Position numbers and translations under genes: made by a program. Of a stretch of DNA of 13,987 nucleotides, positions 1-13,261 are shown in pieces. The notes under the pieces are model-generated. The model had not been told where the DNA came from, did no database searches, and saw only the letters and a list, made by a program, of their open reading frames with translations. This stretch comes from a virus (taxonomy: Duplodnaviria > Heunggongvirae > Uroviricota > Caudoviricetes): positions 1 to 13,987 of IMG/VR virus record IMGVR_UViG_2548876869_000004; one strand, 5' to 3'. Every line of letters begins with the position of its first letter. Positions within the stretch are counted from its first letter, which is position 1.

Positions 1-45
1 TAACACGAAATCCTGCGAACTGGCAAAATGTAAGTGAATAAAAGT

Positions 46-85
46 AAAAACCCCGTTTGTTGGCAGCAAGCGGGGTTTTGTTTTT
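46..85 (+). terminator. Rho-independent terminator-like hairpin
   Basis: Arms aaaaccccg (47-55) and cggggtttt (71-79) are complementary around a 15-nt loop, followed by T-tract ttttgttttt (76-85). It sits just after an in-frame TAA at 1-3. The A-tract/T-tract symmetry could allow bidirectional function. Confidence 0.4.
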
Positions 86-150
86 ATGGCAGTAAGCTAT
101 GGGAGGCTGCCTTGATTGATTTTAGCAAACTGATTAGGGAGTTGCGACTC

Positions 151-246
151 ATGATTAGTCAATTACCAAACTGGAAATTTTTGCTGGTCTGGAGCATCCC
201 TTTTTTATGGGTAGTATCCCAGTTAATTGTGGCAATTAAGGGGTAG
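151..246 (+). CDS. Very short hydrophobic ORF (31 aa), putative single-TM peptide
   Basis: ATG at 151 preceded by aggga; product MISQLPNWKFLLVWSIPFLWVVSQLIVAIKG has one hydrophobic stretch with a C-terminal lysine. First of four tightly packed mini-ORFs. No recognisable homology. Confidence 0.2.
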   Translation: MISQLPNWKFLLVWSIPFLWVVSQLIVAIKG

Positions 247-248
247 CT

Positions 249-380
249 ATGTCAGACAAACTCATAACGCCGGCAAAGGTCCTGTGTGTGATTGTCGGTA
301 TTTCATTTTCACTAATGCTGGTTGCTCTTTTTCTGTCCCTCGCCTGGGTGATGTTGTCTTCGTCGGGGCTGCTGGGGTGA
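249..380 (+). CDS. Very short hydrophobic ORF (43 aa), putative membrane peptide
   Basis: ATG at 249 with aagggg 6 nt upstream; product MSDKLITPAKVLCVIVGISFSLMLVALFLSLAWVMLSSSGLLG. Its stop overlaps the next ORF's GTG as GTGA (377-380). Confidence 0.25.
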   Translation: MSDKLITPAKVLCVIVGISFSLMLVALFLSLAWVMLSSSGLLG

Positions 381-499
381 CAGTGACTGATGACATCAGC
401 AGAGCGCTGGCTTTTGCTATTAAGTGGGTGGCTGTTGGTATTGCTGTGTCTCCGATGCTGTATGGGCTGGCAAAACTGGTCATTGCGCTGAAATCGTGA
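377..499 (+). CDS. Very short hydrophobic ORF (about 40 aa), paralogue of the 511-597 ORF
   Basis: GTG at 377 (alternative GTG at 383); product ...TDDISRALAFAIKWVAVGIAVSPMLYGLAKLVIALKS. Both peptide and DNA resemble the next mini-ORF (RALAFAIKWVAVGIAV versus [16 protein letters not shown]). Confidence 0.25.
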   Translation: MTVTDDISRALAFAIKWVAVGIAVSPMLYGLAKLVIALKS

Positions 500-510
500 A
501 CTTTAAAAAG

Positions 511-597
511 ATGAGTGCTGAACTTATTCGGGCAATGGCATTTGCCATTCGTATTGTGGCCATTGCTGTTCTGGTCTGGACAATCCGTTGGTGGTGA
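511..597 (+). CDS. Very short hydrophobic ORF (28 aa), paralogue of the 377-499 ORF
   Basis: ATG at 511; product [28 protein letters not shown]. Stop TGA 595-597 lies 1 nt before the Rz ATG at 599. Confidence 0.2.
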
Positions 598-598
598 T

Positions 599-1066
599 AT
601 GAACCGTGTTCTGTGTGTGGTGATTATTGTCCTGCTGGTAGCCTGTGGTGTGCTTAGTCTGGGGCTGAATCATTACCGTGATAACGCCATTACCTACAAA
701 GCCCAGCGCGACAAAAATGTCAGAGAACTGAAGCTGGCGAACGCGGCAATTACTGACATGCAGATGCGTCAGCGTGATGTTGCTGCGCTCGATGCAAAAT
801 ACACGAAGGAGTTAGCTGATGCGAAAGCTGAAAATGATGCTCTTCGTCGCAAGCTTGATAATGGTGGCAGGGTGCTCGTCAAAGGAAAATGCCCTGTGCC
901 ATCCTCAGCCGAAACCTCCAGCGCCTCCGGCATGGGCAATGATGCCACCGTCGAACTCTCTCCAGTTGCTGGACGAAACGTTCTCGGTATCCGGGACGGA
1001 ATTATCCGCGACCAAACAGCACTGAGAACGCTTCAGGAATACATCAGGACGCAATGCCTTCGATGA
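599..1066 (+). CDS. Rz: Rz i-spanin (inner-membrane spanin subunit)
   Basis: From ATG 599: [83 protein letters not shown]... Long stretches match lambda Rz as I recall it ([58 protein letters not shown]). N-terminal TM helix plus coiled-coil periplasmic domain. The ORF-track start at 515 is an upstream in-frame extension. Confidence 0.9.
819..1025 (+). CDS. Rz1: Rz1 o-spanin (outer-membrane lipoprotein), embedded in Rz in the +1 frame
   Basis: [44 protein letters not shown]... has a lipobox (MVAG|C) and a proline-rich stretch, like lambda Rz1 (MLKLKMML...VVGC...PPPPPAW). It lies wholly inside Rz in another frame, the classic embedded spanin arrangement. Confidence 0.85.
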
Positions 1067-1239
1067 TAGCGATAATTTTACTCATCATCCTTCACATCTG
1101 GCTCTGTAGACAGGGTGGTGATCACTTCTGGAGTGAATCCAGATTTAACATCTCATTGCTGATGCTTGATATTGAGCATCTTGCGCGCGGTAAGGGGCTG
1201 CGTTGAGATAAGAGCCAGTCATCACAAACACCAGGATTT

Positions 1240-1266
1240 AGCCTCGCATTCGCGGGGCTTTTTATT
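1240..1266 (+). terminator. Rho-independent terminator-like hairpin downstream of Rz
   Basis: Stem agcctcgc (1240-1247) pairs with gcggggct (1252-1259), with one G-U wobble, around loop attc; followed by ctttttatt T-tract (to 1266). Confidence 0.45.
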
Positions 1267-1284
1267 GCAACAAAGGTAAAGACG

Positions 1285-1572
1285 ATGGATGAAGAATATC
1301 GTAAAGACCTGCAATTGTGGTTTGGCCTGACGCATGCGTCGTTCTGCGTGATGCCGAGAGTATTCATGGAGGCTATGCCGCAAGAATGGCAAGAGAAGAT
1401 GGCGCAGTTGCTTTTTGAGTATGGCGACACGATCAAAACGGATGTCTGCGGAGTTCACTGCTGTTTCGTTACTGCCAAAGACGGCAACAACCGCTTTATG
1501 AGGATGCCAGAAGATATTCTGAACTATCGTCATCCCCGGCGTGAGTTCATCGAATCATTTCTGAAGAAGTAG
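1285..1572 (+). CDS. Hypothetical small cysteine-containing protein (95 aa)
   Basis: ATG 1285; product MDEEYRKDLQLWFGLTHASFCVMPRVFMEAMPQEWQEKMAQLLFEYGDTIKTDVCGVHCCFVTAKDGNNRFMRMPEDILNYRHPRREFIESFLKK has a natural mixed-charge composition and a C-x2-H-C-C cluster. It occupies the lambda bor position but is not Bor-like and is on the opposite strand to lambda bor. I cannot assign a family from memory. Confidence 0.6.
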   Translation: MDEEYRKDLQLWFGLTHASFCVMPRVFMEAMPQEWQEKMAQLLFEYGDTIKTDVCGVHCCFVTAKDGNNRFMRMPEDILNYRHPRREFIESFLKK

Positions 1573-1629
1573 CCATTACAAAGTCTATCTGCGGGGGGCT
1601 TGATAAAGGTGCTTTCACCTCGCTTAGCA

Positions 1630-1638
1630 TGGTATGTT
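1630..1638 (+). promoter_or_regulatory. Possible extended -10 promoter element (TGgTATGTT)
   Basis: tggtatgtt at 1630-1638 resembles an extended -10 (TGnTATAAT) about 28 nt upstream of the ATG at 1666. No convincing -35. Weak, sequence-only call. Confidence 0.2.
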
Positions 1639-1665
1639 CTGACTACCAACTTTTTGGGAGGACAC

Positions 1666-1890
1666 ATGGAACTGATAAATGGACGGCCAGGCAGAGATTT
1701 TATAGTGGGAACATATACCTACTCAGAAATTAAAGATCTTAACTTCATGGCTAAGGAAGAGAAAAGAGCTCGTGAAGAGCTAAAGCATCGGGGTTACGAA
1801 TTGGCGTATATCAAGGCGGACTCTGAATGTAACGGGATGTTTGTCAGGGCGTACCGGGTCTATACTGACAAAGCGCCATCTAATGTCTAA
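1666..1890 (+). CDS. Hypothetical small protein (74 aa), AT-rich cargo gene
   Basis: ATG 1666 with GGAGG at 1657-1661; product MELINGRPGRDFIVGTYTYSEIKDLNFMAKEEKRAREELKHRGYELAYIKADSECNGMFVRAYRVYTDKAPSNV. Visibly lower GC than the structural genes. The TTG-initiated extension from 1600 in the ORF track is unlikely. Confidence 0.55.
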   Translation: MELINGRPGRDFIVGTYTYSEIKDLNFMAKEEKRAREELKHRGYELAYIKADSECNGMFVRAYRVYTDKAPSNV

Positions 1891-1933
1891 ATATACCTCG
1901 GGCGGTTTTTTACGTTCATTACCGTACGCAATT

Positions 1934-1996
1934 ACAGCAGGCATTCATTGAGTGCCTGTGATAATGATTTATCAACGTGCTTGCAAACGGTATTCT
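1934..1996 (+). promoter_or_regulatory. Putative promoter/operator region upstream of the 134-aa gene
   Basis: Inverted repeat cagcaggca (1934-1942) / tgcctgtg (1951-1958) with one bulge, then ttatca (1969-1974), a 16-nt spacer and tattct (1991-1996) as sigma70-like -35/-10, about 30 nt upstream of the GTG at 2026. Confidence 0.25.
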
Positions 1997-2025
1997 AGAC
2001 CTCCAATTATCCTAAGGAGGTTTTT

Positions 2026-2430
2026 GTGGTTAAAAATTTAGAATACATGAAGGGGATGCTTGAGGTATTTTTGAAAGCGAAAACTCCCTTTATATCTACA
2101 AAAGACTTAGCTAATGCGGGGTACGATATCTGCTCGAATGAAGGGATGTTTCATTATCTACTTCTTATTGAGCAAGGTTATATCAGTAATAAAGATCTAA
2201 TAACGGATGACATAACTAAACTGGGCTACATGCGCCATTGTGGCCATATGCTAGATATGGGTACCGACGTGCGACTATCTGCGCAGGGACAAGAATTCGC
2301 CCAGGCATTAAATGAACCTACGGTTTTTGAGAAATTAAAGTCAATGAGCGATGCCCCTTTGAGTACAATCAAAGATGTTGGGCTGGAGTTAACGAAGGCC
2401 TATTTAAAGAAGAAATTTGGCCTCGAGTAA
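2026..2430 (+). CDS. Hypothetical protein (134 aa), AT-rich cargo gene immediately upstream of cos
   Basis: GTG start 2026 with strong SD AAGGAGG (2014-2020); product MVKNLEYMKGMLEVFLKAKTPFISTKDLANAGYDICSNEGMFHYLLLIEQGYISNKD...KKKFGLE. Clearly AT-rich relative to flanking phage genes. Family unassigned; a small helical or winged-helix-type fold is speculation only. Confidence 0.65.
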   Translation: MVKNLEYMKGMLEVFLKAKTPFISTKDLANAGYDICSNEGMFHYLLLIEQGYISNKDLITDDITKLGYMRHCGHMLDMGTDVRLSAQGQEFAQALNEPTVFEKLKSMSDAPLSTIKDVGLELTKAYLKKKFGLE

Positions 2431-2612
2431 AATTTCTACCCTCACGAGTTAAGTTGTTTTGTGATGGTTATTCGCAATGAATATCTTTAGCCACTGGCAT
2501 TTGCTGGTGGTTTTTTTATGCGCATCCCTCGCGCACCACAAAGGGAGTCTTTCAGTAGTGATTCTGAATATCAGTGTGATAAACGTATTTGACAATCATT
2601 ATCATTTTTGGT

Positions 2613-2683
2613 GGGTCCTTTCCGGCGATCCGACAGGTTACGGGGCGGCGACCTCGCGGTTTTTCACTATTTATGAAAATTTT
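2613..2683 (+). other. cos: cos site: cosQ-proximal region, cosN (12-nt cohesive end GGGCGGCGACCT at 2643-2654) and start of cosB
   Basis: gggtcctttccggcgatccgacaggttacg|gggcggcgacct|cgcggtttttcactatttatgaaaatttt is near-identical to the phage lambda right-end/left-end junction as I recall it (...GGGTCCTTTCCGGTGATCCGACAGGTTACG + GGGCGGCGACCTCGCGGGTTTTCGCTATTTATGAAAATTTT). It sits about 180 bp upstream of Nu1, as in lambda. Confidence 0.85.
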
Positions 2684-2750
2684 TCAGGGAAAATCGTGTC
2701 GGTACTTCTCGAATATAACTTTTTGTTTTTTTTAATATTGCATCCGTAAA

Positions 2751-2805
2751 GGTCCGACATGAAAGTGTCCGAAAATGCCTTTTTCTGGCGTTTTCATGTC
2801 GGGCC
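2751..2805. promoter_or_regulatory. Inverted repeat within cosB, candidate terminase small-subunit binding sites
   Basis: Arm ggtccgacatgaaa (2751-2764) and arm tttcatgtcgggcc (2792-2805) are reverse complements at 13 of 14 positions, separated by 27 bp, just upstream of the Nu1 start at 2831. Lambda R2/R1 are similarly inverted. Confidence 0.4.
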
Positions 2806-2830
2806 TTGTATTTGATAATGGGTTGTTTTC

Positions 2831-3379
2831 ATGAAGGTTAATAAAAAGAGGCTTGCCGAAATTTTCAACGTGGACCCGCGGACGATTGAACGCTGGCAGT
2901 CTCAGGGACTCCCTTGCGCCTCCAAAGGTAGTAAGGGCATTGAATCTGTATTTGATACTGCCATGGTAATTCAGTGGTATGCGCAGAGGGAAACTGATAT
3001 CGAAAACGAAAAGCTCCGCAAAGAACTGGACGATTTGCGTGCGGCAGCGGAGTCAGATTTACAACCCGGCACCATTGACTATGAACGCTACCGGCTCACA
3101 AAAGCGCAGGCAGATGCGCAGGAACTGAAAAATGCCCGTGAAGACGGAGTAGTGCTGGAAACTGAACTGTTTACCTTCATTCTGCAACGTGTGGCACAGG
3201 AGATTTCGGGGATACTTGTGCGTGTGCCGTTGACATTACAGCGTAAATATCCGGACATTTCACCATCACACCTTGATGTGGTGAAAACTGAAATCGCGAA
3301 AGCCTCCAATGTTTCAGCTAAGGCCGGTGAAAACGTGGGCGGGTGGATCGATGATTTCAGACGCGCAGAAGGCAGCTAA
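2831..3379 (+). CDS. nu1: Terminase small subunit (gpNu1)
   Basis: [28 protein letters not shown]...[60 protein letters not shown] closely parallels lambda Nu1 (MEVNKKQLADIF...[48 protein letters not shown]). N-terminal winged HTH. Directly downstream of cos. Confidence 0.95.
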
Positions 3380-5279
3380 TGCAGCCGGTGCGATAGCAAC
3401 AGGGCTTTTATCTCTCATTATTCCTGTTCCACTGACGACAGTTCAGTGGGCCAATAAACATTATTACCTTCCTAAAGAGTCGTCTTATACCCCGGGGCGG
3501 TGGGAAACACTGCCGTTTCAGGTTGGCATCATGAACTGTATGGGCAACGATTTGATTCGCACGGTTAACCTGATTAAATCTGCCCGTGTTGGTTATACAA
3601 AGATGTTGCTGGGAGTGGAGGCTTATTTTATTGAGCATAAATCACGCAACAGCCTTCTTTTTCAGCCCACGGACTCAGCTGCTGAAGATTTTATGAAATC
3701 TCATGTTGAGCCAACGATAAGGGAGGTTCCTGCGTTGCTGGAGCTGGCTCCATGGTTCGGAAGAAAACACCGCGATAATACGCTCACCCTGAAGCGTTTT
3801 TCCTCCGGTGTGGGTTTCTGGTGTCTGGGGGGAGCGGCAGCAAAAAACTACCGTGAAAAATCCGTGGATGTGGTCTGTTATGACGAGCTTTCCTCGTTCG
3901 AACCGGATGTTGAAAAAGAGGGTTCGCCAACCCTGCTGGGGGATAAACGTATTGAGGGCTCTGTATGGCCCAAATCCATTCGCGGCTCGACGCCTAAAAT
4001 CAAAGGCTCCTGCCAGATCGAAAAAGCCGCTAACGAGTCGGCACACTTCATGCGTTTTTATGTGCCCTGTCCGCACTGTGGGGAGGAGCAGTATCTGAAA
4101 TTTGGCGATGAGTCCACGCCTTTTGGGCTTAAATGGGAGAAGGACAGCCCCGAAAGCGTTTTCTACCTCTGTGAGCATCATGGCTGCGTGATCCATCAGT
4201 CTGAACTGGACCAGAGTAACGGGCGGTGGATCTGTGAAAACACGGGCATGTGGACCCGTGACGGTCTGACGTTTTTCAGCGCTGCGGGTAATGAAATTCC
4301 GCCGCCGCGCTCCATCACTTTCCATATCTGGACGGCGTACAGTCCGTTCACCACCTGGGTACAGATTGTCTATGACTGGCTGGATGCACTGAAAGATCCC
4401 AACGGCCTGAAAACCTTTGTGAACACCACGCTGGGCGAGACCTGGGAAGAGGCTGTGGGCGAAAAACTCGATCACCAGATACTGATGGATAAGGTTGTGC
4501 GTTACACGGCGGCGGTGCCTGCCCGGGTGGTTTATCTGACGGCGGGCATTGACTCGCAGCGAAACCGTTTTGAGATGTATGTCTGGGGATGGGCTCCGGG
4601 AGAGGAAGCCTTTCTGGTGGATAAAATCATCATTATGGGGCGTCCCGATGAGGAAGAGACGCTGTTACGTGTGGATGCGGCGATCAACAAAAAATACCGC
4701 CATGCAGACGGAACCGAAATGACTATTTCCCGTGTCTGCTGGGACATCGGGGGGATCGATGGCGAAATCGTTTATCAGAGGTCAAAAAAACACGGTGTTT
4801 TCCGGGTGCTGCCGGTAAAAGGCGCATCTGTCTATGGCAAGCCGGTGATCACCATGCCAAAAACCCGCAATCAGCGGGGCGTGTATCTGTGTGAAGTGGG
4901 GACGGACACCGCAAAAGAAATTCTCTATGCCCGTATGAAAGCCGATCCCACGCCTGCGGATGAAGCCACGTCGTATGCCATCCGTTTTCCTGATGATCCG
5001 GAGATTTTTTCGCAGACAGAGGCGCAGCAACTGGTCGCGGAAGAGCTTGTGGAGAAGTGGGAAAAAGGAAAGATGCGTCTGCTGTGGGATAACAAAAAGC
5101 GGCGTAACGAAGCGCTGGACTGCCTGGTGTATGCCTACGCGGCATTACGTGTGTCCGTGCAACGCTGGCAGCTTGATCTGGCTGTACTGGCAAAATCCCG
5201 GGAAGAAGAGACGACCCGGCCAACCCTTAAAGAACTGGCAGCGAAGCTGTCCGGAGGAGTGAATGGTTACAGTCGCTGA
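3351..5279 (+). CDS. A: Terminase large subunit (gpA)
   Basis: From ATG 3351 (overlapping the Nu1 3' end as in lambda): MISDAQK...[25 protein letters not shown]...[22 protein letters not shown]...[14 protein letters not shown]...KRRNEALDC. Recognisable lambda gpA motifs throughout. The ORF-track start at 3309 is an upstream extension. Confidence 0.95.
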
Positions 5280-5469
5280 ACTGCAGGCGCTGCGTCAGGC
5301 GCGCCTTGATTTATTAACCGGTAAACGGGTGGTGTCTGTCCAGAAAGATGGTCGCAGAATTGAATATACGGCGGCTTCTCTGGATGAGCTTAACCGGGCG
5401 ATCAATGATGCGGAGTCGGTACTGGGGACAACCCGGCGTCGCCGTCGTCCGCTGGGAGTGAGGTTATGA
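5263..5469 (+). CDS. W: Head-tail joining / head completion protein gpW
   Basis: 68 aa; LLTGKRVVSVQKDGRRIEYTAASLDEL resembles lambda gpW ([27 protein letters not shown]). Start overlaps the A stop; stop overlaps the B start (ATGA). Confidence 0.9.
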   Translation: MVTVAELQALRQARLDLLTGKRVVSVQKDGRRIEYTAASLDELNRAINDAESVLGTTRRRRRPLGVRL

Positions 5470-7058
5470 AACGAACGCCTGTCCTGATTGATGTGAACGG
5501 CGTTCCGCTTCGTGAGAGTCTCAGCTACAACGGGGGCGGTGCAGGATTTGGCGGGCAAATGGCTGAGTGGTTGCCACCGGCGCAGAGTGCCGATGCGGCC
5601 CTGCTGCCCGCGTTGCGTCTGGGGAATGCCCGGGCAGATGATCTGGTGCGCAATAACGGAATAGCGGCTAATGCGGTGGCTCTGCATAAGGATCACATTG
5701 TCGGGCATATGTTTCTGATCAGCTACCGTCCGAACTGGCGCTGGCTGGGGATGCGGGAGACCGCAGCAAAAAGCTTTGTCGATGAGGTGGAGGCGGCCTG
5801 GTCGGAATACGCCGAAGGGATGTTTGGCGAGATCGACGTGGAAGGAAAACGCACGTTCACGGAATTTATCCGTGAAGGTGTGGGCGTTCATGCGTTTAAC
5901 GGCGAAATCTTTGTGCAGCCGGTCTGGGATACGGAAACCACGCAGTTATTCCGTACGCGTTTTAAAGCCGTGAGTCCGAAACGGGTGGACACGCCTGGAC
6001 ACGGTATGGGGAACCGTTTTCTGCGGGCCGGTGTGGAGGTCGATCGATATGGCCGTGCCGTCGCGTACCATATTTGTGAGGATGATTTTCCGTTCTCTGG
6101 TAGTGGACGATGGGAACGGATCCCGCGTGAACTTCCCACCGGGCGTCCGGCTATGCTGCATATTTTCGAGCCGGTGGAGGACGGGCAGACCCGTGGGGCT
6201 AATCAGTTTTACAGCGTCATGGAACGGCTGAAGATGCTCGATTCCCTGCAGGCAACACAGCTTCAGTCGGCCATAGTGAAGGCGATGTATGCAGCGACGA
6301 TTGAAAGTGAACTTGATACCGAAAAGGCCTTTGAATATATCGCCGGCGCGCCACAGGAGCAGAAGGATAATCCGCTTATTAATATTCTGGAGAAGTTCTC
6401 CAGCTGGTATGACACGAATCACGTGACGCTGGGCGGTGTCAAAATTCCGCACCTTTTCCCTGGTGATGATCTGAAACTGCAGACAGCGCAGGATTCAGAC
6501 AATGGATTTTCGGCGCTTGAACAGGCGCTGCTGCGGTATATCGCCGCCGGTCTTGGCGTTTCCTACGAACAGTTGTCCCGTGATTACTCGAAGGTCAGTT
6601 ACTCAAGTGCCCGCGCCTCCGCCAATGAGTCGTGGCGCTATTTTATGGGGCGGCGAAAATTTATTGCGGCCCGACTGGCCACGCAGATGTTTTCCTGCTG
6701 GCTGGAAGAGGCACTTCTTCGGGGGATTATTCGTCCGCCACGGGCACGTTTTGATTTTTATCAGGCGCGATCAGCCTGGTCACGGGCAGAGTGGATTGGT
6801 GCCGGAAGAATGGCCATTGACGGGCTCAAGGAAGTCCAGGAATCAGTGATGCGCATTGAGGCCGGACTGAGCACGTATGAGAAAGAGCTGGCGCTGATGG
6901 GCGAGGATTATCAGGACATTTTCCGCCAGCAGGTCAGGGAATCTGCAGAGCGGGAAAAAGCCGGACTCTCACGCCCGGTGTGGATAGCGCAGGCGTATCA
7001 GCAGCAGATAGCGGAGAGTCGCAGGCCGGAAGAGGAGACAACACCACGTGAGACGTAA
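5466..7058 (+). CDS. B: Portal protein (gpB)
   Basis: 530 aa with extended lambda gpB-like blocks: GNARADDLVRNNG, FEPVEDGQTRGANQFYSVMERLKMLDSLQATQLQSAIVKAMYAATIESELDT, LLRYIAAGLGVSYEQLSRDYS, WIGAGRMAIDGLKEVQESVMRIEAGLSTYEKE. Confidence 0.95.
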   Translation: MKRTPVLIDVNGVPLRESLSYNGGGAGFGGQMAEWLPPAQSADAALLPALRLGNARADDLVRNNGIAANAVALHKDHIVGHMFLISYRPNWRWLGMRETAAKSFVDEVEAAWSEYAEGMFGEIDVEGKRTFTEFIREGVGVHAFNGEIFVQPVWDTETTQLFRTRFKAVSPKRVDTPGHGMGNRFLRAGVEVDRYGRAVAYHICEDDFPFSGSGRWERIPRELPTGRPAMLHIFEPVEDGQTRGANQFYSVMERLKMLDSLQATQLQSAIVKAMYAATIESELDTEKAFEYIAGAPQEQKDNPLINILEKFSSWYDTNHVTLGGVKIPHLFPGDDLKLQTAQDSDNGFSALEQALLRYIAAGLGVSYEQLSRDYSKVSYSSARASANESWRYFMGRRKFIAARLATQMFSCWLEEALLRGIIRPPRARFDFYQARSAWSRAEWIGAGRMAIDGLKEVQESVMRIEAGLSTYEKELALMGEDYQDIFRQQVRESAEREKAGLSRPVWIAQAYQQQIAESRRPEEETTPRET

Positions 7059-8553
7059 TCTTTCACACATTATTGCCGCAGCATTCAATGAACCGCTGCT
7101 TCTGGAGCCCGCCTATGCGCGGGTTTTCTTTTGCGCGCTCGGGCGCGAGATGGGGGCAGCAAGTCTTTCGGTACCACAACAACAGGTACAGCTTGATGCT
7201 CCCGGAATGCTGGCTGAAACGGACGAGTACATGGCCGGAGGTAAACGACCGGCCCGTGTTTACCGGGTGGTGAACGGTATTGCGGTACTGCCGGTGACCG
7301 GCACGCTGGTGCACCGGCTGGGCGGTATGCGGCCATTTTCCGGAATGACAGGCTATGACGGCATTGTCGCCTGTCTTCAGCAGGCAATGGCAGATAGCCA
7401 GGTGCGGGGCGTACTGCTGGACATTGACAGTCCGGGCGGGCAGGCCGCCGGCGCGTTTGACTGCGCTGACATGATTTACCGCCTCCGTCAGCAGAAGCCG
7501 GTCTGGGCACTGTGCAATGACACGGCCTGTTCTGCAGCCATGCTGCTGGCGTCGGCCTGCTCCCGACGGCTGGTTACTCAGACATCCCGTATCGGCTCCA
7601 TTGGCGTGATGATGAGCCATGTCAGCTATGCCGGTCATCTGGCGCAGGCCGGGGTGGATATCACGCTGATTTATGCCGGGGCGCACAAGGTGGATGGCAA
7701 TCAGTTTGAAGCCTTACCGGCAGAGGTGCGTCAGGACATGCAGCAGCGGGTTGATGCGGCGCACCGGATGTTTGCCGAAAAAGTGGCGATGTATACGGGG
7801 CTGTCTGTGGAAGCTGTCACGGGGACAGAGGCTGCCGTTTTTGAAGGTCAGTCCGCTATTAAGGCCGGACTGGCGGATGAATTAATCAATGCGTCGGATG
7901 CCATCAGCGTGATGGCTGCGGCGCTGAACACTCATGATACAGGAGGCACTATGCCGCAATTAACTGCAACGGAAGCTGCCGCGCAGGAGAACCAGCGAGT
8001 GATGGGGATCCTGACGTGTCAGGAAGCGAAAGGACGTGAACAGCTTGCCACGATGCTGGCAGGACAACAGGGCATGAGCATTGAACAGGCCCGGGCGATT
8101 CTGGCCGCGGCGGCACCACAGCAGCCGGTGGCATCCGCGCAGAGTGAAGCCGATCGCATTATGGCGTGTGAAGAAGCGAAAGGTCGTGAACAACTGGCGG
8201 CAACGCTGGCGGCGATGCCGGAGATGACGGTGGAAAAAGCCCGCCCGATCTTGGCTGCCTCACCGCAGGCGAATGCCGGGCCCTCACTTCGTGATCAGAT
8301 CATGGCCCTGGATGAGGCAAAAGGGGCAGAAGCGCAGGCTGAAAAACTGGCGGCCTGCCCGGGAATGACCGTGGAGAACGCCCGGGCTGTGCTGGCTGCG
8401 GGATCAGGTAAGGCCGAACCGGTCTCTGCATCCACAACCGCCCTGTTTGAACATTTCATGGCGAATCATTCACCGGCAGCGGTGCGGGGTGGCGTGTCAC
8501 AGACGTCAGCAGACGGTGATGCGGACGTGAAAATGCTCATGGCCATGCCATGA
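7048..8553 (+). CDS. C: Head maturation protease / scaffold fusion (gpC-like, S49/ClpP-type) with Nu3-like C-terminal region
   Basis: GTG start 7048 overlapping the B stop; AAFNEPLLLEPAYARVFFCAL, VNGIAVLPVTG, MTGYDGIV, DSPGG.AAGAFDCADMI, KPVWAL, SRRLVTQTSRIGSIGVMMSH, ITLIYAGAHKVDGN, YTGLSV, GLADEL all parallel lambda gpC. The C-terminal part holds three tandem copies of a Nu3-like motif. Confidence 0.9.
   Translation: MRRNLSHIIAAAFNEPLLLEPAYARVFFCALGREMGAASLSVPQQQVQLDAPGMLAETDEYMAGGKRPARVYRVVNGIAVLPVTGTLVHRLGGMRPFSGMTGYDGIVACLQQAMADSQVRGVLLDIDSPGGQAAGAFDCADMIYRLRQQKPVWALCNDTACSAAMLLASACSRRLVTQTSRIGSIGVMMSHVSYAGHLAQAGVDITLIYAGAHKVDGNQFEALPAEVRQDMQQRVDAAHRMFAEKVAMYTGLSVEAVTGTEAAVFEGQSAIKAGLADELINASDAISVMAAALNTHDTGGTMPQLTATEAAAQENQRVMGILTCQEAKGREQLATMLAGQQGMSIEQARAILAAAAPQQPVASAQSEADRIMACEEAKGREQLAATLAAMPEMTVEKARPILAASPQANAGPSLRDQIMALDEAKGAEAQAEKLAACPGMTVENARAVLAAGSGKAEPVSASTTALFEHFMANHSPAAVRGGVSQTSADGDADVKMLMAMP
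7951..8553 (+). CDS. nu3: Putative Nu3-like scaffolding protein from an internal in-frame start within C
   Basis: In-frame ATG at 7951 preceded by AGGAGG (7941-7946); downstream ENQRVMGILTCQEAKGREQ matches the lambda Nu3 N-terminal region (AENSRIMGILNCEEAHGREEQ). A nested scaffold gene is established for lambda C/Nu3; here it is inferred from the RBS plus homology. Confidence 0.5.
   Translation: MPQLTATEAAAQENQRVMGILTCQEAKGREQLATMLAGQQGMSIEQARAILAAAAPQQPVASAQSEADRIMACEEAKGREQLAATLAAMPEMTVEKARPILAASPQANAGPSLRDQIMALDEAKGAEAQAEKLAACPGMTVENARAVLAAGSGKAEPVSASTTALFEHFMANHSPAAVRGGVSQTSADGDADVKMLMAMP
7996..8420 (+). repeat. Intragenic tandem triplication (about 141-159 nt units) encoding three Nu3-like scaffold repeats
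   Basis: Three successive units: RVMGILTCQEAKGREQLATMLAGQQGMSIEQARAILAAAAPQQ / RIMACEEAKGREQLAATLAAMPEMTVEKARPILAASPQAN / QIMALDEAKGAEAQAEKLAACPGMTVENARAVLAAGSGKA, starting at about 7996, 8155 and 8296. The DNA is diverged but clearly related (for example gaagcgaaagg(a/t)cgtgaaca). Confidence 0.6.
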
Positions 8554-8589
8554 AGTCAGTGCTGACCATCAATATGAGGTTTTAACAAA

Positions 8590-8937
8590 ATGGTGACGAA
8601 AACCATCACTGAACAGCGTGCGGAAGTACGTATTTTTGCTGGTAATGATCCGGCTCATACCGCCACAGGCAGCAGCGGGATTTCTTCTGCAACACCGGCT
8701 CTGACGCCCCTGATGCTGGATGAAGCCACCGGGAAACTGGTGGTCTGGGATGGACAGAAAGCCGGTAGTGCGGTTGGCATACTGGTACTGCCGCTTGAAG
8801 GCACAGAGACGGTGCTGACCTATTACAAGTCGGGGACCTTTGCGACGGAGGCAATCCGCTGGCCTGACAGTGTGGATGAACACAAAAAGGCAAATGCCTT
8901 TGCCGGCACAGCCCTGAGTCACGCGGCTCTGCCGTAA
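8590..8937 (+). CDS. D: Head decoration protein (gpD)
   Basis: 115 aa; NDPAHTAT, TPLMLD, KLVVWDG, AVGILV, YYKSGTF, KKANAFAGTA mirror lambda gpD (SDPAHTATA, MTPLMLD, KLVAWDG, AVGILA, FYKSGTF, KKRTAFAGTA). Confidence 0.9.
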   Translation: MVTKTITEQRAEVRIFAGNDPAHTATGSSGISSATPALTPLMLDEATGKLVVWDGQKAGSAVGILVLPLEGTETVLTYYKSGTFATEAIRWPDSVDEHKKANAFAGTALSHAALP

Positions 8938-8945
8938 CACGTTAT

Positions 8946-8965
8946 CAGGCCACCATGGTGGCCTG
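8946..8965. repeat. Perfect 20-bp palindrome (caggccacca|tggtggcctg) in the D-E intergenic region
   Basis: The sequence at 8946-8965 is its own reverse complement. It lies between the D stop (8937) and the E start (8995). Confidence 0.6.
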
Positions 8966-8994
8966 ACTGATTTCTGAATGAAAGGAACTGATTT

Positions 8995-10023
8995 ATGGGA
9001 TTGTTTACGACCCGCCAGTTACTCGGTTATACCGAACAAAAAGTTAAATTCCGTGCGCTGTTTCTGGAGCTGTTTTTCCGCCGTACGGTGAATTTCCACA
9101 CCGAAGAGGTGATGCTGGACAAAATTACCGGAAAAACGCCGGTGGCGGCCTATGTCTCCCCGATCGTTGAAGGAAAAGTGCTGCGCCATCGTGGTGGTGA
9201 AACCCGCGTGTTGCGTCCGGGCTACGTCAAGCCGAAACACGAATTTAATTACCAGCAGGCGGTTGAGCGCCTTCCTGGTGAAGATCCGGCTCAGCTGAAC
9301 GACCCGGCCTACCGTCGTCTGCGTATCATTACCGATAACCTCAAACAGGAAGAGCACGCCATTGTCCAGGTGGAAGAAATGCAGGCGGTGAATGCCGTGC
9401 TGTATGGCAAATACACCATGGAAGGGGATCAGTTTGATACTGTCGAGGTGGATTTCGGGCGCTCTGAAGGAAATAACATTGAGCAGGCTGACGGTAAAAA
9501 ATGGTCTGAGCAGGACCGTGATACGTTTGATCCGACGCATGATATTGACCTCTACTGCGATCAGGCCAGCGGCCTTGTGAATATCGCCATTATGGACGGT
9601 ACGGTCTGGCGTCTGCTGAATGGCTTTAAGCTGTTCCGCGAAAAACTGGATACCCGTCGCGGCTCAAATTCACAACTCGAAACGGCAGTGAAAGATCTGG
9701 GCGCAGTGGTGTCCTTCAAGGGGTATTACGGCGATCTGGCCATTGTGGTGGCGAAAACGTCTTATGTGGCAGAGGACGGTACCGAAAAACGTTATCTGCC
9801 GGAGGGCATGCTGGTGCTGGGGAATACGGCGGCAGAGGGGATTCGTTGCTATGGTGCCATTAAGGATGCACAGGCGTTGTCTGAAGGAGTGGTGGCTTCT
9901 TCCCGTTACCCGAAACACTGGCTGACCGTGGGCGATCCGTCCTGTGAATTCACCATGACGCAGTCCGCTCCGCTGATGGTGCTGCCGGATCCGGATGAGT
10001 TTGTGGTGGTACAGGTGAAATAA
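8995..10023 (+). CDS. E: Major capsid protein (gpE)
   Basis: 342 aa; YVSPIV.G.V.R.RGG, PGYVKPKHE, RRLP.EDP, DPAYRR.RII, VEEMQAV.AVL.GKYTM.G, KLDTRRGSNS.LETAVKDLG, YPK.W.T.GDP..EFTM.QSAPLM all match lambda gpE. Confidence 0.95.
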   Translation: MGLFTTRQLLGYTEQKVKFRALFLELFFRRTVNFHTEEVMLDKITGKTPVAAYVSPIVEGKVLRHRGGETRVLRPGYVKPKHEFNYQQAVERLPGEDPAQLNDPAYRRLRIITDNLKQEEHAIVQVEEMQAVNAVLYGKYTMEGDQFDTVEVDFGRSEGNNIEQADGKKWSEQDRDTFDPTHDIDLYCDQASGLVNIAIMDGTVWRLLNGFKLFREKLDTRRGSNSQLETAVKDLGAVVSFKGYYGDLAIVVAKTSYVAEDGTEKRYLPEGMLVLGNTAAEGIRCYGAIKDAQALSEGVVASSRYPKHWLTVGDPSCEFTMTQSAPLMVLPDPDEFVVVQVK

Positions 10024-10030
10024 TCCGTGA

Positions 10031-10060
10031 GCGGGGGCGAAATGCCCCCGTGTCTTTTTT
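10031..10060 (+). terminator. GC-rich hairpin plus T-tract immediately after the major capsid gene
   Basis: cgggggc (10032-10038) pairs with gcccccg (10044-10050) around loop gaaat, followed by tgtctttttt (10051-10060). Lies between the E stop and the FI RBS. Confidence 0.4.
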
Positions 10061-10074
10061 CACAGGAGGCTGAG

Positions 10075-10458
10075 ATGGCAACAAAAGAAGAAAATCTGAA
10101 TCGTCTTCGTCAACTGGCTGGCCTGCTGGGGCGCGAGGCGGATATGTCGGGGAGTGCTGCGGATATTGCTCAACGTGTGTCTGAGTGGGAAGAGGAGCTT
10201 GCTGTTTCCCCGGAGGGCATTATGCACTCTGATGAGAGCGGGGCTGATCAAAATCACACAGACGATGGTGAGCAGTTGAACAACACGGATGCTCCGGATG
10301 ATGTTAAAGCCGTCCGGGTACGGAAGTGCCTGCAAGTAATGGGGTATTGCCCGGAGACAGGTCGTCCCGTTGAGCTGGCGTTACGGGGTATGCGTGTTCT
10401 GGTGCCATCATCACTGGCAACGGCCATGATACAGCACGGAACGGCTGAATATGCGTGA
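10075..10458 (+). CDS. FI: DNA-packaging accessory protein gpFI-like
   Basis: ATG 10075 preceded by AGGAGG; MATKEENLNRLRQLAGLLGREADMSGSAADIAQRVSEWEEEL... has a highly acidic linker region and sits in the lambda FI position between E and FII. Similarity to lambda FI is modest. The ORF-track start at 10027 lies inside the upstream hairpin. Confidence 0.8.
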   Translation: MATKEENLNRLRQLAGLLGREADMSGSAADIAQRVSEWEEELAVSPEGIMHSDESGADQNHTDDGEQLNNTDAPDDVKAVRVRKCLQVMGYCPETGRPVELALRGMRVLVPSSLATAMIQHGTAEYA

Positions 10459-10804
10459 TTTTCAGAATGCCTTTGATGCTGCCCTCGCCGGGGTAGACAG
10501 TACGATCGTTGAAGTGATGGGGCTCTGTGCGCAGTTCACCTCGGGGGCACAGTGTGGCAGCGAAGTTCAGGGGGTTTTTGACGATCCGGAGTCGCTGGGG
10601 TTTGCCGGTGGCGGGGTCCGTATTGAAGGAAGCAGCCCGTCATTATTTGTGCGGACGGATACGGTTCGTGCCGTGCGGCGTGGTGACACGCTGACCATTA
10701 ATGGTGAGATATTCTGGGTGGATCGTGTTTCTCCGGATGACGGGGGCAGCTGTTATCTCTGGCTCAACCGTGGTCAACCACCCGCAGTTAACCGGCGACG
10801 ATAA
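10451..10804 (+). CDS. FII: Head-tail connector protein gpFII
   Basis: 117 aa; GVFDDPE, GGGVRIEGSSPSLFVRTD.VR..RRGDTLTI, FWVDRVSPDDGGSCYLWL.RG.PPAVNRRR is near-identical to the lambda gpFII C-terminal half. Confidence 0.9.
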   Translation: MRDFQNAFDAALAGVDSTIVEVMGLCAQFTSGAQCGSEVQGVFDDPESLGFAGGGVRIEGSSPSLFVRTDTVRAVRRGDTLTINGEIFWVDRVSPDDGGSCYLWLNRGQPPAVNRRR

Positions 10805-10819
10805 ACGCAGGGTGAAATT

Positions 10820-11353
10820 ATGGCGATAAAAGGGCTTGATCAGGCGATTGACAATCTGAGCCGGGTTCGTAAAAACGCCATTCCGGCGGCTTCAGCAATG
10901 GCCATTAACCGCGTGGCCACAACGGCGATTAATCAGTCTTCATCACAGGTTGCCCGGGAGACAAAGGTTCGCCGGAAACTGGTTAAGGAACGGTCCAGAC
11001 TGAAACGGGCGACGGTCAGAAATCCGAATGCCAGAATTATCGTTAACCGCGGTGATCTCCCTGTGATTAAGCTGGGGATCAGGATGCTGGGGCGTCGCCC
11101 GAACAGCATACTTAAAGCCGGTCAGCATCGGTATCAGCGGGCATTTATTCAGCGATTAAAAAATGGTCGCTGGCATGTCATGCAGCGTGTGGCCGGGAAA
11201 AACCGTTACCCCATTGATGTGGTGAAAATCCCGATGGCGGCCCCACTGAAACAGGCATTTGATGAGAATGTTGACCGTATCCGGCGTGAACGCCTGCCTA
11301 AAGAACTGGCATACGCGCTGAAACAACAACTGAGGATTGCAATAAAACGATGA
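10820..11353 (+). CDS. Z: Tail completion protein gpZ
   Basis: 177 aa; MAIKGLDQAIDNLSR, AMAINRVA, SQVARETKVRRKLVKER.RLKRATV.NP.ARI.VNRGDLPVIKLG, QRLKNGRWHVMQRVAGKNRYPIDVVKIPMA, RIRRERLPKEL match lambda gpZ. Confidence 0.9.
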   Translation: MAIKGLDQAIDNLSRVRKNAIPAASAMAINRVATTAINQSSSQVARETKVRRKLVKERSRLKRATVRNPNARIIVNRGDLPVIKLGIRMLGRRPNSILKAGQHRYQRAFIQRLKNGRWHVMQRVAGKNRYPIDVVKIPMAAPLKQAFDENVDRIRRERLPKELAYALKQQLRIAIKR

Positions 11354-11745
11354 AACACACTGACATTCGTGCCGCAGTGCTGGATGCACTCGAGCAGCAT
11401 GAACACGGGGCGACGCTGTTTGATGGTCGCCCCGTTGTTTTTGACGAAGAGGATTTTCCTGCGATCGCGGTTTATCTGACGGATGCAGAGTATACCGGTG
11501 AAGAGCTGGATGCAGATACCTGGCGGGCCACGCTGCATATTGAGGTGTTTTTACCGGCACAGGTACCGGATTCAGAGCTTGAACAGTGGATGGAAAGCCG
11601 GATTTACCCGGCGATGACCGCGATCCCGGCACTGGCAGGACTGATTACCACGATGGTTACGCAGGGCTATGAGTATCGTCGTGATGACGATATGGCGTTA
11701 TGGAGTTCTGCAGATCTGACTTATTCCATTACATACGAGATGTGA
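11350..11745 (+). CDS. U: Tail terminator protein gpU
   Basis: 131 aa; [90 protein letters not shown] match lambda gpU. Start overlaps the Z stop (ATGA). Confidence 0.9.
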
Positions 11746-11752
11746 GGACGAT

Positions 11753-12505
11753 ATGGCAACACCAAATCCCCTTGAGCCGGTAAAAGGTGCCGGTACCACT
11801 CTGTGGGTTTACAACGGCAAGGGTGATGCTTATGCAAACCCGTTGTCAGACGATGACTGGCAGCGACTGGCTAAGGTGAAGGATCTGACGCCGGGCGAGA
11901 TGACGGCAGAATCCTACGATGATAACTACCTGGATGATGAAGACGCGGACTGGACCGCGACCGGGCAGGGGCAGAAATCTGCAGGTGATACCAGTTTTAC
12001 GCTGGCCTGGAAACCGGGAGAGGAAGGCCAGAAAGGGCTTATAGGCTGGTTTGAAAGCGGCGATGTCCGGGCCTATAAAATCCGTTTTCCGAATGGCACG
12101 GTGGATGTGTTTCGTGGCTGGGTCAGCAGTATCGGTAAGGCCGTGACGGCGAAAGAAGTGATCACCCGCACGGTGAAAGTCACTAACGTGGGTAAACCTT
12201 CTGTAGCGGAAGAACGCAGCAAAATTACGCCGGTCAGTGCGATTAAGGTGACGCCGACATCCGGTACGGTGGCAAAAGGGAAAACAACCACCCTGACGGT
12301 TTCTTTTGAGCCGGAAAGTGCAACCGACAAGACGTTCAGAGCGGTTTCCGCCGATCCGTCGAAAGCCACCATTAGTGTGAAAGATATGACAATTACGGTA
12401 AACGGCGTGGCGACAGGTAAGGTGCAGATCCCTGTGGTGAGCGGAAATGGTCAGTTCGCCGCAGTGGCTGAAGTCACCGTTACTGAAGCGGGCGCTGCAG
12501 GGTAA
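11753..12505 (+). CDS. V: Major tail tube protein (gpV) with C-terminal Ig-like domain
   Basis: 250 aa; [113 protein letters not shown] match lambda gpV. Confidence 0.95.
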
Positions 12506-12518
12506 ACGGAGGTAATAC

Positions 12519-12821
12519 ATGTTTCTGAAAACAGAACAATTTGAATATAACGGTGTGTCTGTCACGCTTTCCGAATTGTCTGCGCTGCAGCGTATCGAGC
12601 ATCTTGCCCTCCTGAAACGGCGTGCAGAACAGGCAGAATCCTGCGGCAACCTGCTCACCACCTGGCCTGCCGATGCCATTGCCCGGGCGGAAGACGTGGT
12701 GTTGTGCCTGTCCGGGATGATCGAAGCTGTTCGTCCGGATACTGATATTACTGAAGTGGCGAAAAATAACACGCTGACTGATGATGATTTTTCTGCGGGA
12801 AAGTCTTCGACGGCGAGCTGA
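12519..12821 (+). CDS. G: Tail assembly chaperone gpG (zero-frame product)
   Basis: 100 aa; MFLKTEQFEYNGVSVTLSELSALQRIEHLALLKRRAEQAES matches the lambda gpG N-terminus (MFLKTESFEHNGVTVTLSELSALQRIEHLALMKRQAEQAES). It is shorter than lambda G as I recall it (about 140 aa). Confidence 0.85.
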   Translation: MFLKTEQFEYNGVSVTLSELSALQRIEHLALLKRRAEQAESCGNLLTTWPADAIARAEDVVLCLSGMIEAVRPDTDITEVAKNNTLTDDDFSAGKSSTAS

Positions 12822-13261
12822 ACTTTGCCCTCAGACTGGCGCGTGAGATGGGGAGACCCGACTGGCGCGCCATGCTTGCCGGGATGACATCCACCGAATA
12901 TGCCGACTGGCACCGTTTTTACCGCACGCATTATTTTCAGGATACCCAGCTGGATATGCATTTTTCCGGGCTGACGTACGCTGTACTCAGCCTGTTTTTT
13001 TGCGATCCGGATATGCATCCCTCTGATTTCAGTCTGCTTGTCCCCCGGCATGAGGAAGAGCAGGTGGAGAGGCCGGATGAGGACAAAATGCTGATGCAGA
13101 AAGCGGCAGGACTTGCCGGAGGCGTCCGGTTCGGTGGGGACGGAGGGCGCGATATTTTATCGTCTGCGGATGTGGCGGATGTCATGGTGGATGATGCCGC
13201 ATTAATGATGGCTTCAGCGGGGATTCCGGGAGGTGCGAGATATGTCCCAGCCGGTTGGTGA
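12519..13261 (+). CDS. G-T: gpG-T tail assembly chaperone fusion produced by a programmed -1 ribosomal frameshift
   Basis: Slippery heptamer G GGA AAG at 12797-12803 is in the correct zero-frame register. After the -1 slip the reading continues ...ELNFALRLAREMGRPDWRAMLAGMTSTEYADWHRFYRTHYFQD..., closely matching lambda gpT (MGRPDWRAMLAGMSSTEYADWHRFY.THYF), ending at TGA 13259-13261. Confidence 0.8.

Follow-up and report, generated by a model that had tools for sequence, protein, structure and literature searches.

Small membrane-peptide genes of two families between the endolysin and spanin genes of a lambdoid lysis cassette

Introduction

What occupies the space directly ahead of the spanin gene Rz in a phage lysis cassette when the endolysin gene expected at that position is not seen? 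The question is raised by a stretch of Caudoviricetes DNA of 13,987 nucleotides (nt) (IMG/VR record IMGVR_UViG_2548876869_000004, positions 1 to 13,987; hereafter the window), in which four short, tightly packed open reading frames (ORFs), here called o1 to o4 and collectively the mini-ORFs, precede Rz. An initial annotation took them either for a family of small membrane peptides or for the remains of a degraded membrane-protein gene. Our comparative analysis indicates that the four ORFs are genuine microprotein genes of two families, A (o1, o3 and o4) and B (o2), and they very probably encode real membrane microproteins of the late operon. The lambdoid lysis cassette is among the best-studied gene sets in virology, yet these conserved genes inside it are unannotated or labelled 'hypothetical'; their sequences are already in databases as unnamed PHROG clusters, for which we found no name, function or literature.

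Results

Coordinates, starts and peptides of the four ORFs

The mini-ORFs and the most upstream ribosome-binding site are listed below (aa, amino acids).

101-106, plus strand: Shine-Dalgarno sequence GGGAGG, 5 nt 5' of TTG 112
112-246, plus strand: o1, family A-like (PHROG 6632), 44-aa form from TTG 112; its 31-aa core is 151-246, from ATG 151
249-380, plus strand: o2, family B (PHROG 4906), 43 aa, one transmembrane (TM) helix with a G17xxxS21 motif
377-499, plus strand: o3, leaderless family A core (..ISRALAFAIKWVAVGIAVSPMLYGLAKLVIALKS), 40 aa, GTG start
511-597, plus strand: o4, short family A member (PHROG 1115/4493), 28 aa

The initial annotation had described plus-strand ORFs at 151-246 (31 aa), 249-380 (43 aa), 377-499 (40 aa) and 511-597 (28 aa), with 2 nt between the first two, the stop/start overlap GTGA between the second and third, 11 nt between the third and fourth and 1 nt between the last and Rz. 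Both the ORFs and their spacing were confirmed, and the spacing is compatible with the translational coupling at which it had hinted. Each peptide is, as it had proposed, one hydrophobic helix, with best 19-residue Kyte-Doolittle windows of 1.9-2.9. The peptides end 0-3 residues past this helix (..IKG, ..GLLG, ..LKS and ..RWW) and carry neither a lipobox nor a soluble domain; o1 forms a single TM helix with the C-terminus ...IVAIKG. AlphaFold2 predicted one long helix for o2 and, for a 60-aa relative of o3, a long confident helix (residues 22-59) together with a low-confidence N-terminal helix.

The ATG of o1 at 151 is preceded by the Shine-Dalgarno sequence AGGGAG at 136-141 with a 9-nt spacer, and translation may start further upstream at TTG 112. 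The GGGAGG at 101-106 corresponds in position to the GGGAG Shine-Dalgarno sequence before the ATG of 60-aa family A genes. DNA running from the flank of the upstream endolysin gene R, via a terminator, to this GGGAG(G) is common to the window, phage GER2 and a further comparison locus (L061; L numbers denote loci), and the alleles differ beyond it, which places TTG 112 at the usual start position of the family. The o1 leader shows no significant DNA homology to the o3 leader, only the stretch up to the Shine-Dalgarno sequence being shared. For o2 the Shine-Dalgarno sequence is AAGGGG at 238-243. The start of o3 is GTG 377, within the GTGA overlap with the o2 stop, or GTG 383. Lacking a clear Shine-Dalgarno sequence, o4 starts 11 nt past the o3 stop, and its 3' end, GGTGGTGA, doubles as the Shine-Dalgarno sequence of Rz.

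Two families of microproteins

All four peptides match PHROG families of unknown function: o3 (E-value 6.4e-25) and o4 (5.8e-6) match phrog_1115, phrog_4493 and phrog_3246, o1 matches phrog_6632 (6e-5; 1.3e-12 for the long form) and o2 matches phrog_4906 (4.5e-21). Full-length relatives matched PHROG at 2e-41 (60 aa) and 1e-24 (50 aa). PHROG 3246, a 90-aa profile, appears to be a mis-called ORF at 227-499 that overlaps o2. The mini-ORFs matched nothing in Pfam or NCBIfam at E-values up to 1, nor in PADLOC, and no Rfam family was matched at E-values up to 1 over the mini-ORF region; as a positive control for the holin search, the upstream holin S was assigned to PF04971 (phage 21 S, a pinholin).

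Family A comprises 232 clusters at 90% identity, with source names almost only from Escherichia or Salmonella, and family B 103 clusters at the same identity, with source names all from E. coli; the names shown for the family A and o2 clusters are all hypothetical or uncharacterised. The usual full-length family A peptide has 60 aa and starts at an ATG after the conserved GGGAG, with a leader M-x-KYKRILLRLT ahead of the core A-x-AFAIKW-VAVGIAVSP-x-LYG-LAKLIIALKS. Eleven residues of the family are invariant, including K36, W37, P46, Y49, G50 and K59, and other members have an acidic leader (some Salmonella) or none. Nearly all full-length members of family B have 43 aa, a length held down to approximately 62-65% identity, and K4, F20, S21, M23-V25, W33 and L36 are invariant. 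Small-xxx-small motifs, the usual signature of TM helix packing, are conserved in family A (A39xxxA43/G41xxxS45) and in o2 (G17xxxS21). The reading of the mini-ORFs as a family of small membrane peptides in the lysis cassette is supported.

In the window, o3 lacks the family A leader and is fused straight onto the o2 stop. The short-helix allele o4 has a full-length 50-aa relative with a leader in phage GER2, where it is the sole ORF between R and Rz, and o4 agrees at its N-terminus, MSAELIRA, with a recurrent class of 38-aa peptides, MNAELLRAAAFAIKW... At the peptide level o3 and o4 are related (z 5.5, 0/500 shuffles), as are the 60-aa form and the GER2 form (z 17.7). The best local DNA alignment of o3 and o4, 12/14 nt with a score of 18, was not above chance (shuffle mean 15, standard deviation 2.6). 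The paralogy of o3 and o4 asserted at both peptide and DNA level therefore stands for the peptides only, and the tandem duplication of about 127 bp proposed with it was not borne out; a recent duplication is ruled out at the DNA level. Protein similarity combined with chance-level DNA similarity thus points to diverged alleles that were brought side by side. The relation of o1 to o3 is marginal (z ~3.3), and o1 is clearly related to a hybrid ORF of Escherichia sp. (L087) whose C-terminus, ...IRWW, resembles that of o4. An O157-type homologue of o1, MKMIKTDWKFLLVWLIPFLWVVARLITAIKG, appears to be stop/start-coupled to an antirepressor gene.

Purifying selection

The ratio of non-synonymous to synonymous differences (pN/pS), calculated pairwise by the Nei-Gojobori method on unique intact copies, was 0.16 for o3 (17 sequences), the lowest of the six frames, the other five ranging from 0.37 to over 15. 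Variable sites in o3 were distributed 7/2/16 over the three codon positions. The ratios were 0.49 for o2 (22 sequences; best of the three sense frames), 0.38 for o4 on as few as 5 sequences and 0.53 for o1 on as few as 4. Strong purifying selection thus acts on o3, and o1, o2 and o4 are under weaker constraint. Among 91 IMG/VR copies of the leaderless o3 that carry the o2/o3 junction of the window, 85 were intact, with one non-synonymous and four distinct synonymous changes, one of the latter in the stop codon (TGA to TAA).

A shuffling module rather than one broken gene

The mini-ORFs are more than chance reading frames, and each recurs as an intact ORF at many other loci. The commonest order in the IMG/VR sample is S-R-o3(60 aa)-o2-Rz, compared with S-R-o1-o2-o3-o4-Rz for the window; we also found S-R-o3-o4-Rz, S-R-o3-o2-o3-o4-Rz, S-R-(o1/o4 hybrid)-Rz and, with an antirepressor gene (Ant), S-R-Ant-o1-o2-Rz in O157:H7 and S-R-Ant-o2-Rz in BP-4795. 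The mini-ORFs are a shuffling accessory module between the endolysin and spanin genes.

It is very improbable that the four ORFs are frameshifted remains of a larger membrane-protein gene, chance ORFs, or the shadow of an antisense gene at 262-483. No single long gene spanned the interval in any of several hundred related loci inspected, and the degraded-gene alternative of the initial annotation fails this comparison with relatives, which it had itself named as a check: the units are separate, with their own Shine-Dalgarno sequences and starts, and vary in order and copy number. In its favour, other frames contain a 90-aa ORF (227-499) and a 57-aa ORF (424-597) that overlap the mini-ORFs and are reflected in automated annotations and in PHROG 3246. 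Sometimes called by pipelines, these two ORFs have N-terminal parts that are out-of-frame readings of the adjacent mini-ORF, and we rejected them, together with an ORF at 34-246, as out-of-frame or unconserved extensions. An antisense frame is also open across o2 and o3. For o3 the antisense gene was rejected (pN/pS 0.37 versus 0.16 in the sense frame) and for o2 the two are not separable by pN/pS; the limits of the antisense ORF shift with the arrangement of the units.

The antirepressor gene, encoding approximately 190-232 aa, is inserted in the R/Rz interval of O157:H7 prophages, BP-4795 and PhiR5_1 (L001, L006 and L166), and its end overlaps or abuts the next mini-ORF, by 4 nt with o1 in PhiR5_1 and by 1 nt with the annotated o2 ORF in BP-4795. 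The antirepressor thus sits in a late lysis operon at these loci.

The endolysin gene lies just beyond the window edge

The remaining features of the window end are as follows.

47-85, plus strand (narrower limits 47-79): strong intrinsic terminator, 15-bp stem and T run, separating the mini-ORF block from the endolysin gene upstream
599-1066, plus strand: Rz (i-spanin), PF03245, E 1e-31; its ATG at 599 is 1 nt past the o4 stop
819-1025, plus strand: Rz1 (o-spanin), nested in Rz, PF06085, E 4e-21, lipobox LIMVAGC
1240-1267, plus strand (narrower limits 1240-1259): strong intrinsic terminator that closes the mini-ORF/Rz/Rz1 block

With positions 1-1270, the window covers the distal part of a lambdoid lysis cassette. 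E. coli FORC_069 (NZ_CP023061) is 100% identical to window positions 100-610 and carries, in order, a class II holin gene (216 nt), a YdfR pseudogene, a lysozyme gene (534 nt), three 'hypothetical' mini-ORFs and Rz, annotated as 'lysis protein'. The lysozyme stop in FORC_069 lies approximately 45 nt 5' of window position 1, and the same gene order is found in related phages and prophages. The upstream lysozyme R matches PF00959, and its N-terminus is Gly/Ala-rich and weakly hydrophobic, as is typical of signal-anchor-release (SAR) endolysins. The cassette order is therefore P21-type pinholin S, SAR lysozyme R, terminator, o1, o2, o3, o4, Rz/Rz1 and terminator. The statement that no endolysin gene precedes Rz is true within the window, the endolysin gene merely being cut off by its edge. 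With pinholin and SAR lysozyme directly upstream, the premise that an endolysin was to be expected at the mini-ORFs is a window-edge artefact, and a replacement of the endolysin by the mini-ORFs is ruled out by the R gene just upstream of the window in related genomes. Cassettes of Shiga toxin (Stx) phages have been surveyed as predicted SAR endolysin, pinholin and Rz/Rz1, without mention of small ORFs (PMC8136144).

Probable transcription from the late operon

The terminator at 47-85 would stop transcription without Q antitermination. Phage GER2 has the same hairpin and L061 a weakened version of it; Salmonella (L168) has a hairpin at a similar place whose stem differs in sequence, and L174 also has an upstream terminator. 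We found no terminator between the window's mini-ORFs and Rz. A scan for sigma-70 consensus promoters, which weak promoters could escape, gave no promoter-like site before the mini-ORFs (80-250), sites in the window not exceeding the shuffle expectation, and none in the relevant intervals of L061 and L174. With no promoter-like site and a terminator upstream, the ORFs would depend for their expression on the late transcript antiterminated by Q.

This layout bears on the possibility, which we regard as unlikely, that the peptides are moron-type cargo unrelated to lysis, serving the lysogen, superinfection block or the modulation of host membrane proteins, with the R/Rz junction as a permissive hot spot. 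A moron has its own promoter 5' and its own terminator 3'; here no promoter-like site lies ahead of the mini-ORFs, and a terminator lies upstream and none before Rz, which is the reverse of the promoter-gene-terminator arrangement. The mini-ORFs moreover appear to be stop/start-coupled into Rz, and PADLOC returned nothing. At 0.46, the GC content of the block is somewhat below the 0.53 average of the window, which counts in favour of cargo.

A second possibility, that the peptides are type I toxin-like or mini-holins which themselves depolarise or permeabilise the membrane, is improbable. In size and in their single hydrophobic helix they resemble the Hok, TisB and Ibs toxins and very small holins, and insulation by the upstream terminator would suit a toxic product. 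The antisense RNA or own promoter that defines a type I toxin was not found, nor was an Rfam family, so that the type I toxin-like option of the initial annotation is not supported; the genes form an operon array and not a solitary locus, the peptides have no charged C-terminal tail and no Pfam holin match, and a pinholin is already encoded upstream.

Just 5' of the terminator, the sequence GGATAACAC(G/A)AAATCC (window 1-46; L168 3330-3400) is conserved in E. coli, GER2 and Salmonella modules despite differing flanking genes.

Distribution and cassette contexts

At least part of window positions 100-610 is matched in 1,749 of 5,426 complete E. coli genomes (about a third), at 3,262 places in all, and at least 80% of this interval in 587 of them. 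The o2 ORF is encoded, usually unannotated, in 276 phage records, mostly of Stx1- and Stx2-converting phages. The DLP12 and Qin prophages of E. coli K-12 lack the mini-ORFs, R overlapping Rz there; small-protein studies in K-12 have thus never met these genes and are uninformative about them. We searched the supplements of ribosome-profiling studies of enterohaemorrhagic E. coli and Salmonella for the peptide sequences and found none.

Of 80 IMG/VR loci with o3, 79 have an endolysin gene at most 3 kb upstream: an R-type lysozyme in 74, a GH108 endolysin in four and an M15 peptidase in one. Families A and B also follow GH108 endolysin genes (with holin_8 and holin_3_7) and M15 peptidase genes, and in these cassettes they precede a small lipoprotein gene and not Rz. 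In Salmonella, family A follows a SAR lysozyme gene with a holin_2_3-type holin. What these contexts share, regardless of the enzyme, is a position between the endolysin and the outer-membrane step. This occurrence in lysis cassettes of at least three enzyme types, always on the spanin side, argues further against cargo. In a survey of the endolysin family of R, one genome per species and 68 loci in all, R abuts the i-spanin gene without a mini-ORF in 57; the other 11 have a gap between R and the i-spanin gene, which holds the o1/o4 hybrid in one and an unrelated ORF of 33-38 aa in about eight. The absence of mini-ORFs from most R relatives, the shuffling and variable number of the modules, the antirepressor gene and the unrelated ORF family that occupy the same slot (the latter in other genera), and one locus with family A genes and no lysis genes are all in keeping with cargo. 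The R/Rz junction is a documented hot spot of microprotein gene gain, shuffling and loss, even if the peptides prove to be cargo.

The same contexts bear on a third possibility, that the mini-ORFs are relay reading frames in which translation, and not the peptide, matters, delivering ribosomes to the start of Rz once R and Rz had been split by foreign DNA and a terminator. R abuts or overlaps Rz in most relatives; the stop of the last ORF is always 1-11 nt upstream of the Rz ATG, the 3' end of this ORF providing the Rz Shine-Dalgarno sequence, and o4 has none of its own. We nevertheless judge a pure relay to be as improbable as a self-acting toxin or mini-holin: the amino-acid sequences are conserved, most strongly in o3 with its low pN/pS and its 11 invariant family residues, all members keep the hydrophobic helix, a single ORF would suffice where as many as four are found, and the same families lie ahead of the non-Rz lipoprotein gene.

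Discussion

Comparison with known lysis proteins

The peptides lie outside the described holin, antiholin, releasin (DUF2730), spanin and type I toxin families, and our best guess at their action is that of an antiholin- or releasin-like accessory. They are small, have a TM helix and belong to a lysis cassette, as holins do; the highly charged hydrophilic C-terminal domain of holins and a match to a described holin family were not found. They have neither the periplasm-spanning domain nor the lipobox plus membrane anchor of spanins, and the canonical Rz/Rz1 follow them. Hok, TisB, Ibs, AcrZ and MgrB share their size (20-60 aa) and single hydrophobic helix, but these are solitary genes with antisense RNAs or their own regulation, whereas the mini-ORFs form an array in a phage late transcript.

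The closest positional precedent, by analogy, is LysA of phage P2, whose cassette order is Y, K, lysA (antiholin), lysB, lysC (PMC3091744). The membrane protein LysA is not essential, and its gene has the endolysin gene K on one side and lysB/lysC, equivalents of Rz/Rz1, on the other (PMC3091744), which is the position of the mini-ORFs. Separately encoded antiholins of the P2 LysA, T4 RI and P1 LydB type are late co-expressed membrane proteins of the lysis cassette; the mini-ORF peptides fit this description, with late co-expression presumed from the lack of a promoter-like site and from the upstream terminator. LysA differs in having four TM domains (PMC3091744), compared with one helix in the mini-ORF peptides, no sequence similarity was detected between them, and the effect on lysis timing known for LysA would extend to the mini-ORFs by analogy only.

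The releasin gp25 of phage Mu (DUF2730) is a membrane-anchored accessory protein that governs the release of a SAR endolysin, the gene of which lies within a few genes upstream (PMC9239132). The window's cassette likewise has a SAR-type endolysin with the mini-ORFs within five genes downstream, but the DUF2730 architecture of an N-terminal TM domain and an acidic cytoplasmic domain of approximately 70 aa (PMC9239132) is not found in the mini-ORF families, whose 28-60 aa are almost all intramembrane and which also accompany non-SAR GH108 and M15 endolysins. The latter contexts weaken the case for a partner specific to SAR endolysins, such as a releasin or retention factor. The dual-start pinholin S21 and lambda S107/S105 are also small cassette membrane proteins that function through the packing of TM helices, S21 by a glycine zipper, and family A genes offer two in-frame starts, with and without the basic leader. 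There is, however, no homology; holins have charged C-terminal tails and the mini-ORF peptides none, and the leader is not always basic. A topology switch by dual starts and a basic leader is accordingly not general, some members having an acidic leader or none.

Proposed role

We tentatively propose that the mini-ORF products are accessory inner-membrane peptides that tune lysis. They would share the Q-antiterminated late transcript with S, R and Rz/Rz1, would be translated by initiation that is driven by Shine-Dalgarno sequences or stop/start-coupled and runs on into Rz, and would insert in the inner membrane at lysis time. Their small-xxx-small motifs may then bind the TM segment of another lysis protein, candidate partners being the holin or pinholin, the SAR anchor of R and the Rz anchor, and this binding would adjust when lysis sets in or how sharply it proceeds, in the manner of separately encoded antiholins, for example P2 LysA at the same gene position. 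Should this hold, a new layer would be added to the holin/endolysin/spanin scheme; it would also bear on the timing of Shiga toxin release in Stx phages, because stx is in the same late transcript.

Several observations weigh against this proposal. No sequence relation of the mini-ORFs to holin, antiholin or releasin families was detected, and we found no experiment, ribosome-profiling record or paper on them in the literature. Families A and B occur with several holin and endolysin types, which argues against a holin- or SAR-specific partner, and in Salmonella locus L172 family A genes lie at the degraded end of a prophage, without lysis genes. The 57 of 68 R relatives that have no such ORF, and the frameshifts found in approximately 16 of 92 o2 copies, mean that any role is dispensable, o2 itself included; judging from these sequences, the mini-ORFs would be dispensable accessories and not core lysis genes, since most R relatives abut Rz directly and a minority of o2 copies are frameshifted. 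For o2, the antisense frame that shares its wobble positions gave a pN/pS of 0.50 against 0.49 in the sense frame, so that its coding strand rests on the conserved ATG, Shine-Dalgarno sequence and stop, on hydrophobicity and on operon orientation. In addition, o3 and/or o4 could be inactive recombination leftovers here, o4 having no clear Shine-Dalgarno sequence and o3 having lost its leader.

A broader and more doubtful extension of the lysis-tuning proposal is that families A and B and, independently, the unrelated 33-38 aa family form an unrecognised class of lysis-cassette microproteins, swapped at the endolysin/spanin junction and setting lysis timing through the TM segments of holin, SAR endolysin or spanin; in Stx phages they would then affect both the timing and the amount of Shiga toxin released. 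In Salmonella the 33-38 aa ORF and a 60-aa gene of family A occur together.

Observations on neighbouring genes

The conserved hydrophobic 33-38 aa ORF (for example MSPSSICFIVAGILTCLGMSGWGWFVFVGVILL), with the motif G-W-G-W-F, overlaps the SAR lysozyme stop and precedes Rz. It is present in Enterobacter, Kluyvera, Citrobacter, Trabulsiella, Morganella and Salmonella (L133, L136, L152-L154, L156, L098 and L112, at ~4010-4140 in locus coordinates; L168, 3222-3310), and only its Morganella form matches a PHROG (14810, function unknown).

Cassettes of the phiP27 type (holin_8, holin_3_7, GH108 or M15 endolysin) have a conserved 51-62 aa lipoprotein at the spanin position, with the lipobox LLVGC and a match to PHROG 7528 (L174-L177, 3779/3806-3961; phiP27 itself, L278, 3025-3213; L007, L008 and L025, ~3290-3520). 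No Rz-like i-spanin gene was recognised in the inspected stretches of these cassettes, and none is annotated in phiP27. A non-canonical spanin made of mini-ORF products and this lipoprotein is implausible on size, and phiP27 has the lipoprotein without families A and B.

The S/R junction is also a variable slot: a YdfR/DUF1327 gene, intact or as a pseudogene, often lies between pinholin and SAR lysozyme genes (L003, L004, L006 and L179), and some loci have a small opposite-strand ORF there.

Downstream of the mini-ORFs, a 50-aa ORF on the plus strand (1054-1206) with a hydrophobic N-terminus overlaps the 3' end of Rz. Called 'hypothetical' by PGAP, it is covered in full by a match to PHROG 11822 (E 1e-37) and may represent a fifth gene for a small membrane protein in the cassette. 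The Rz region (599-1270) is mosaic: window positions 1-850 resemble vB_EcoS-569R3-type phages (96%), and positions 657/662-1268 resemble HK620, mEp460 and Ayreon-type phages (92-98%). This split of the matches points to a recombination joint within Rz/Rz1.

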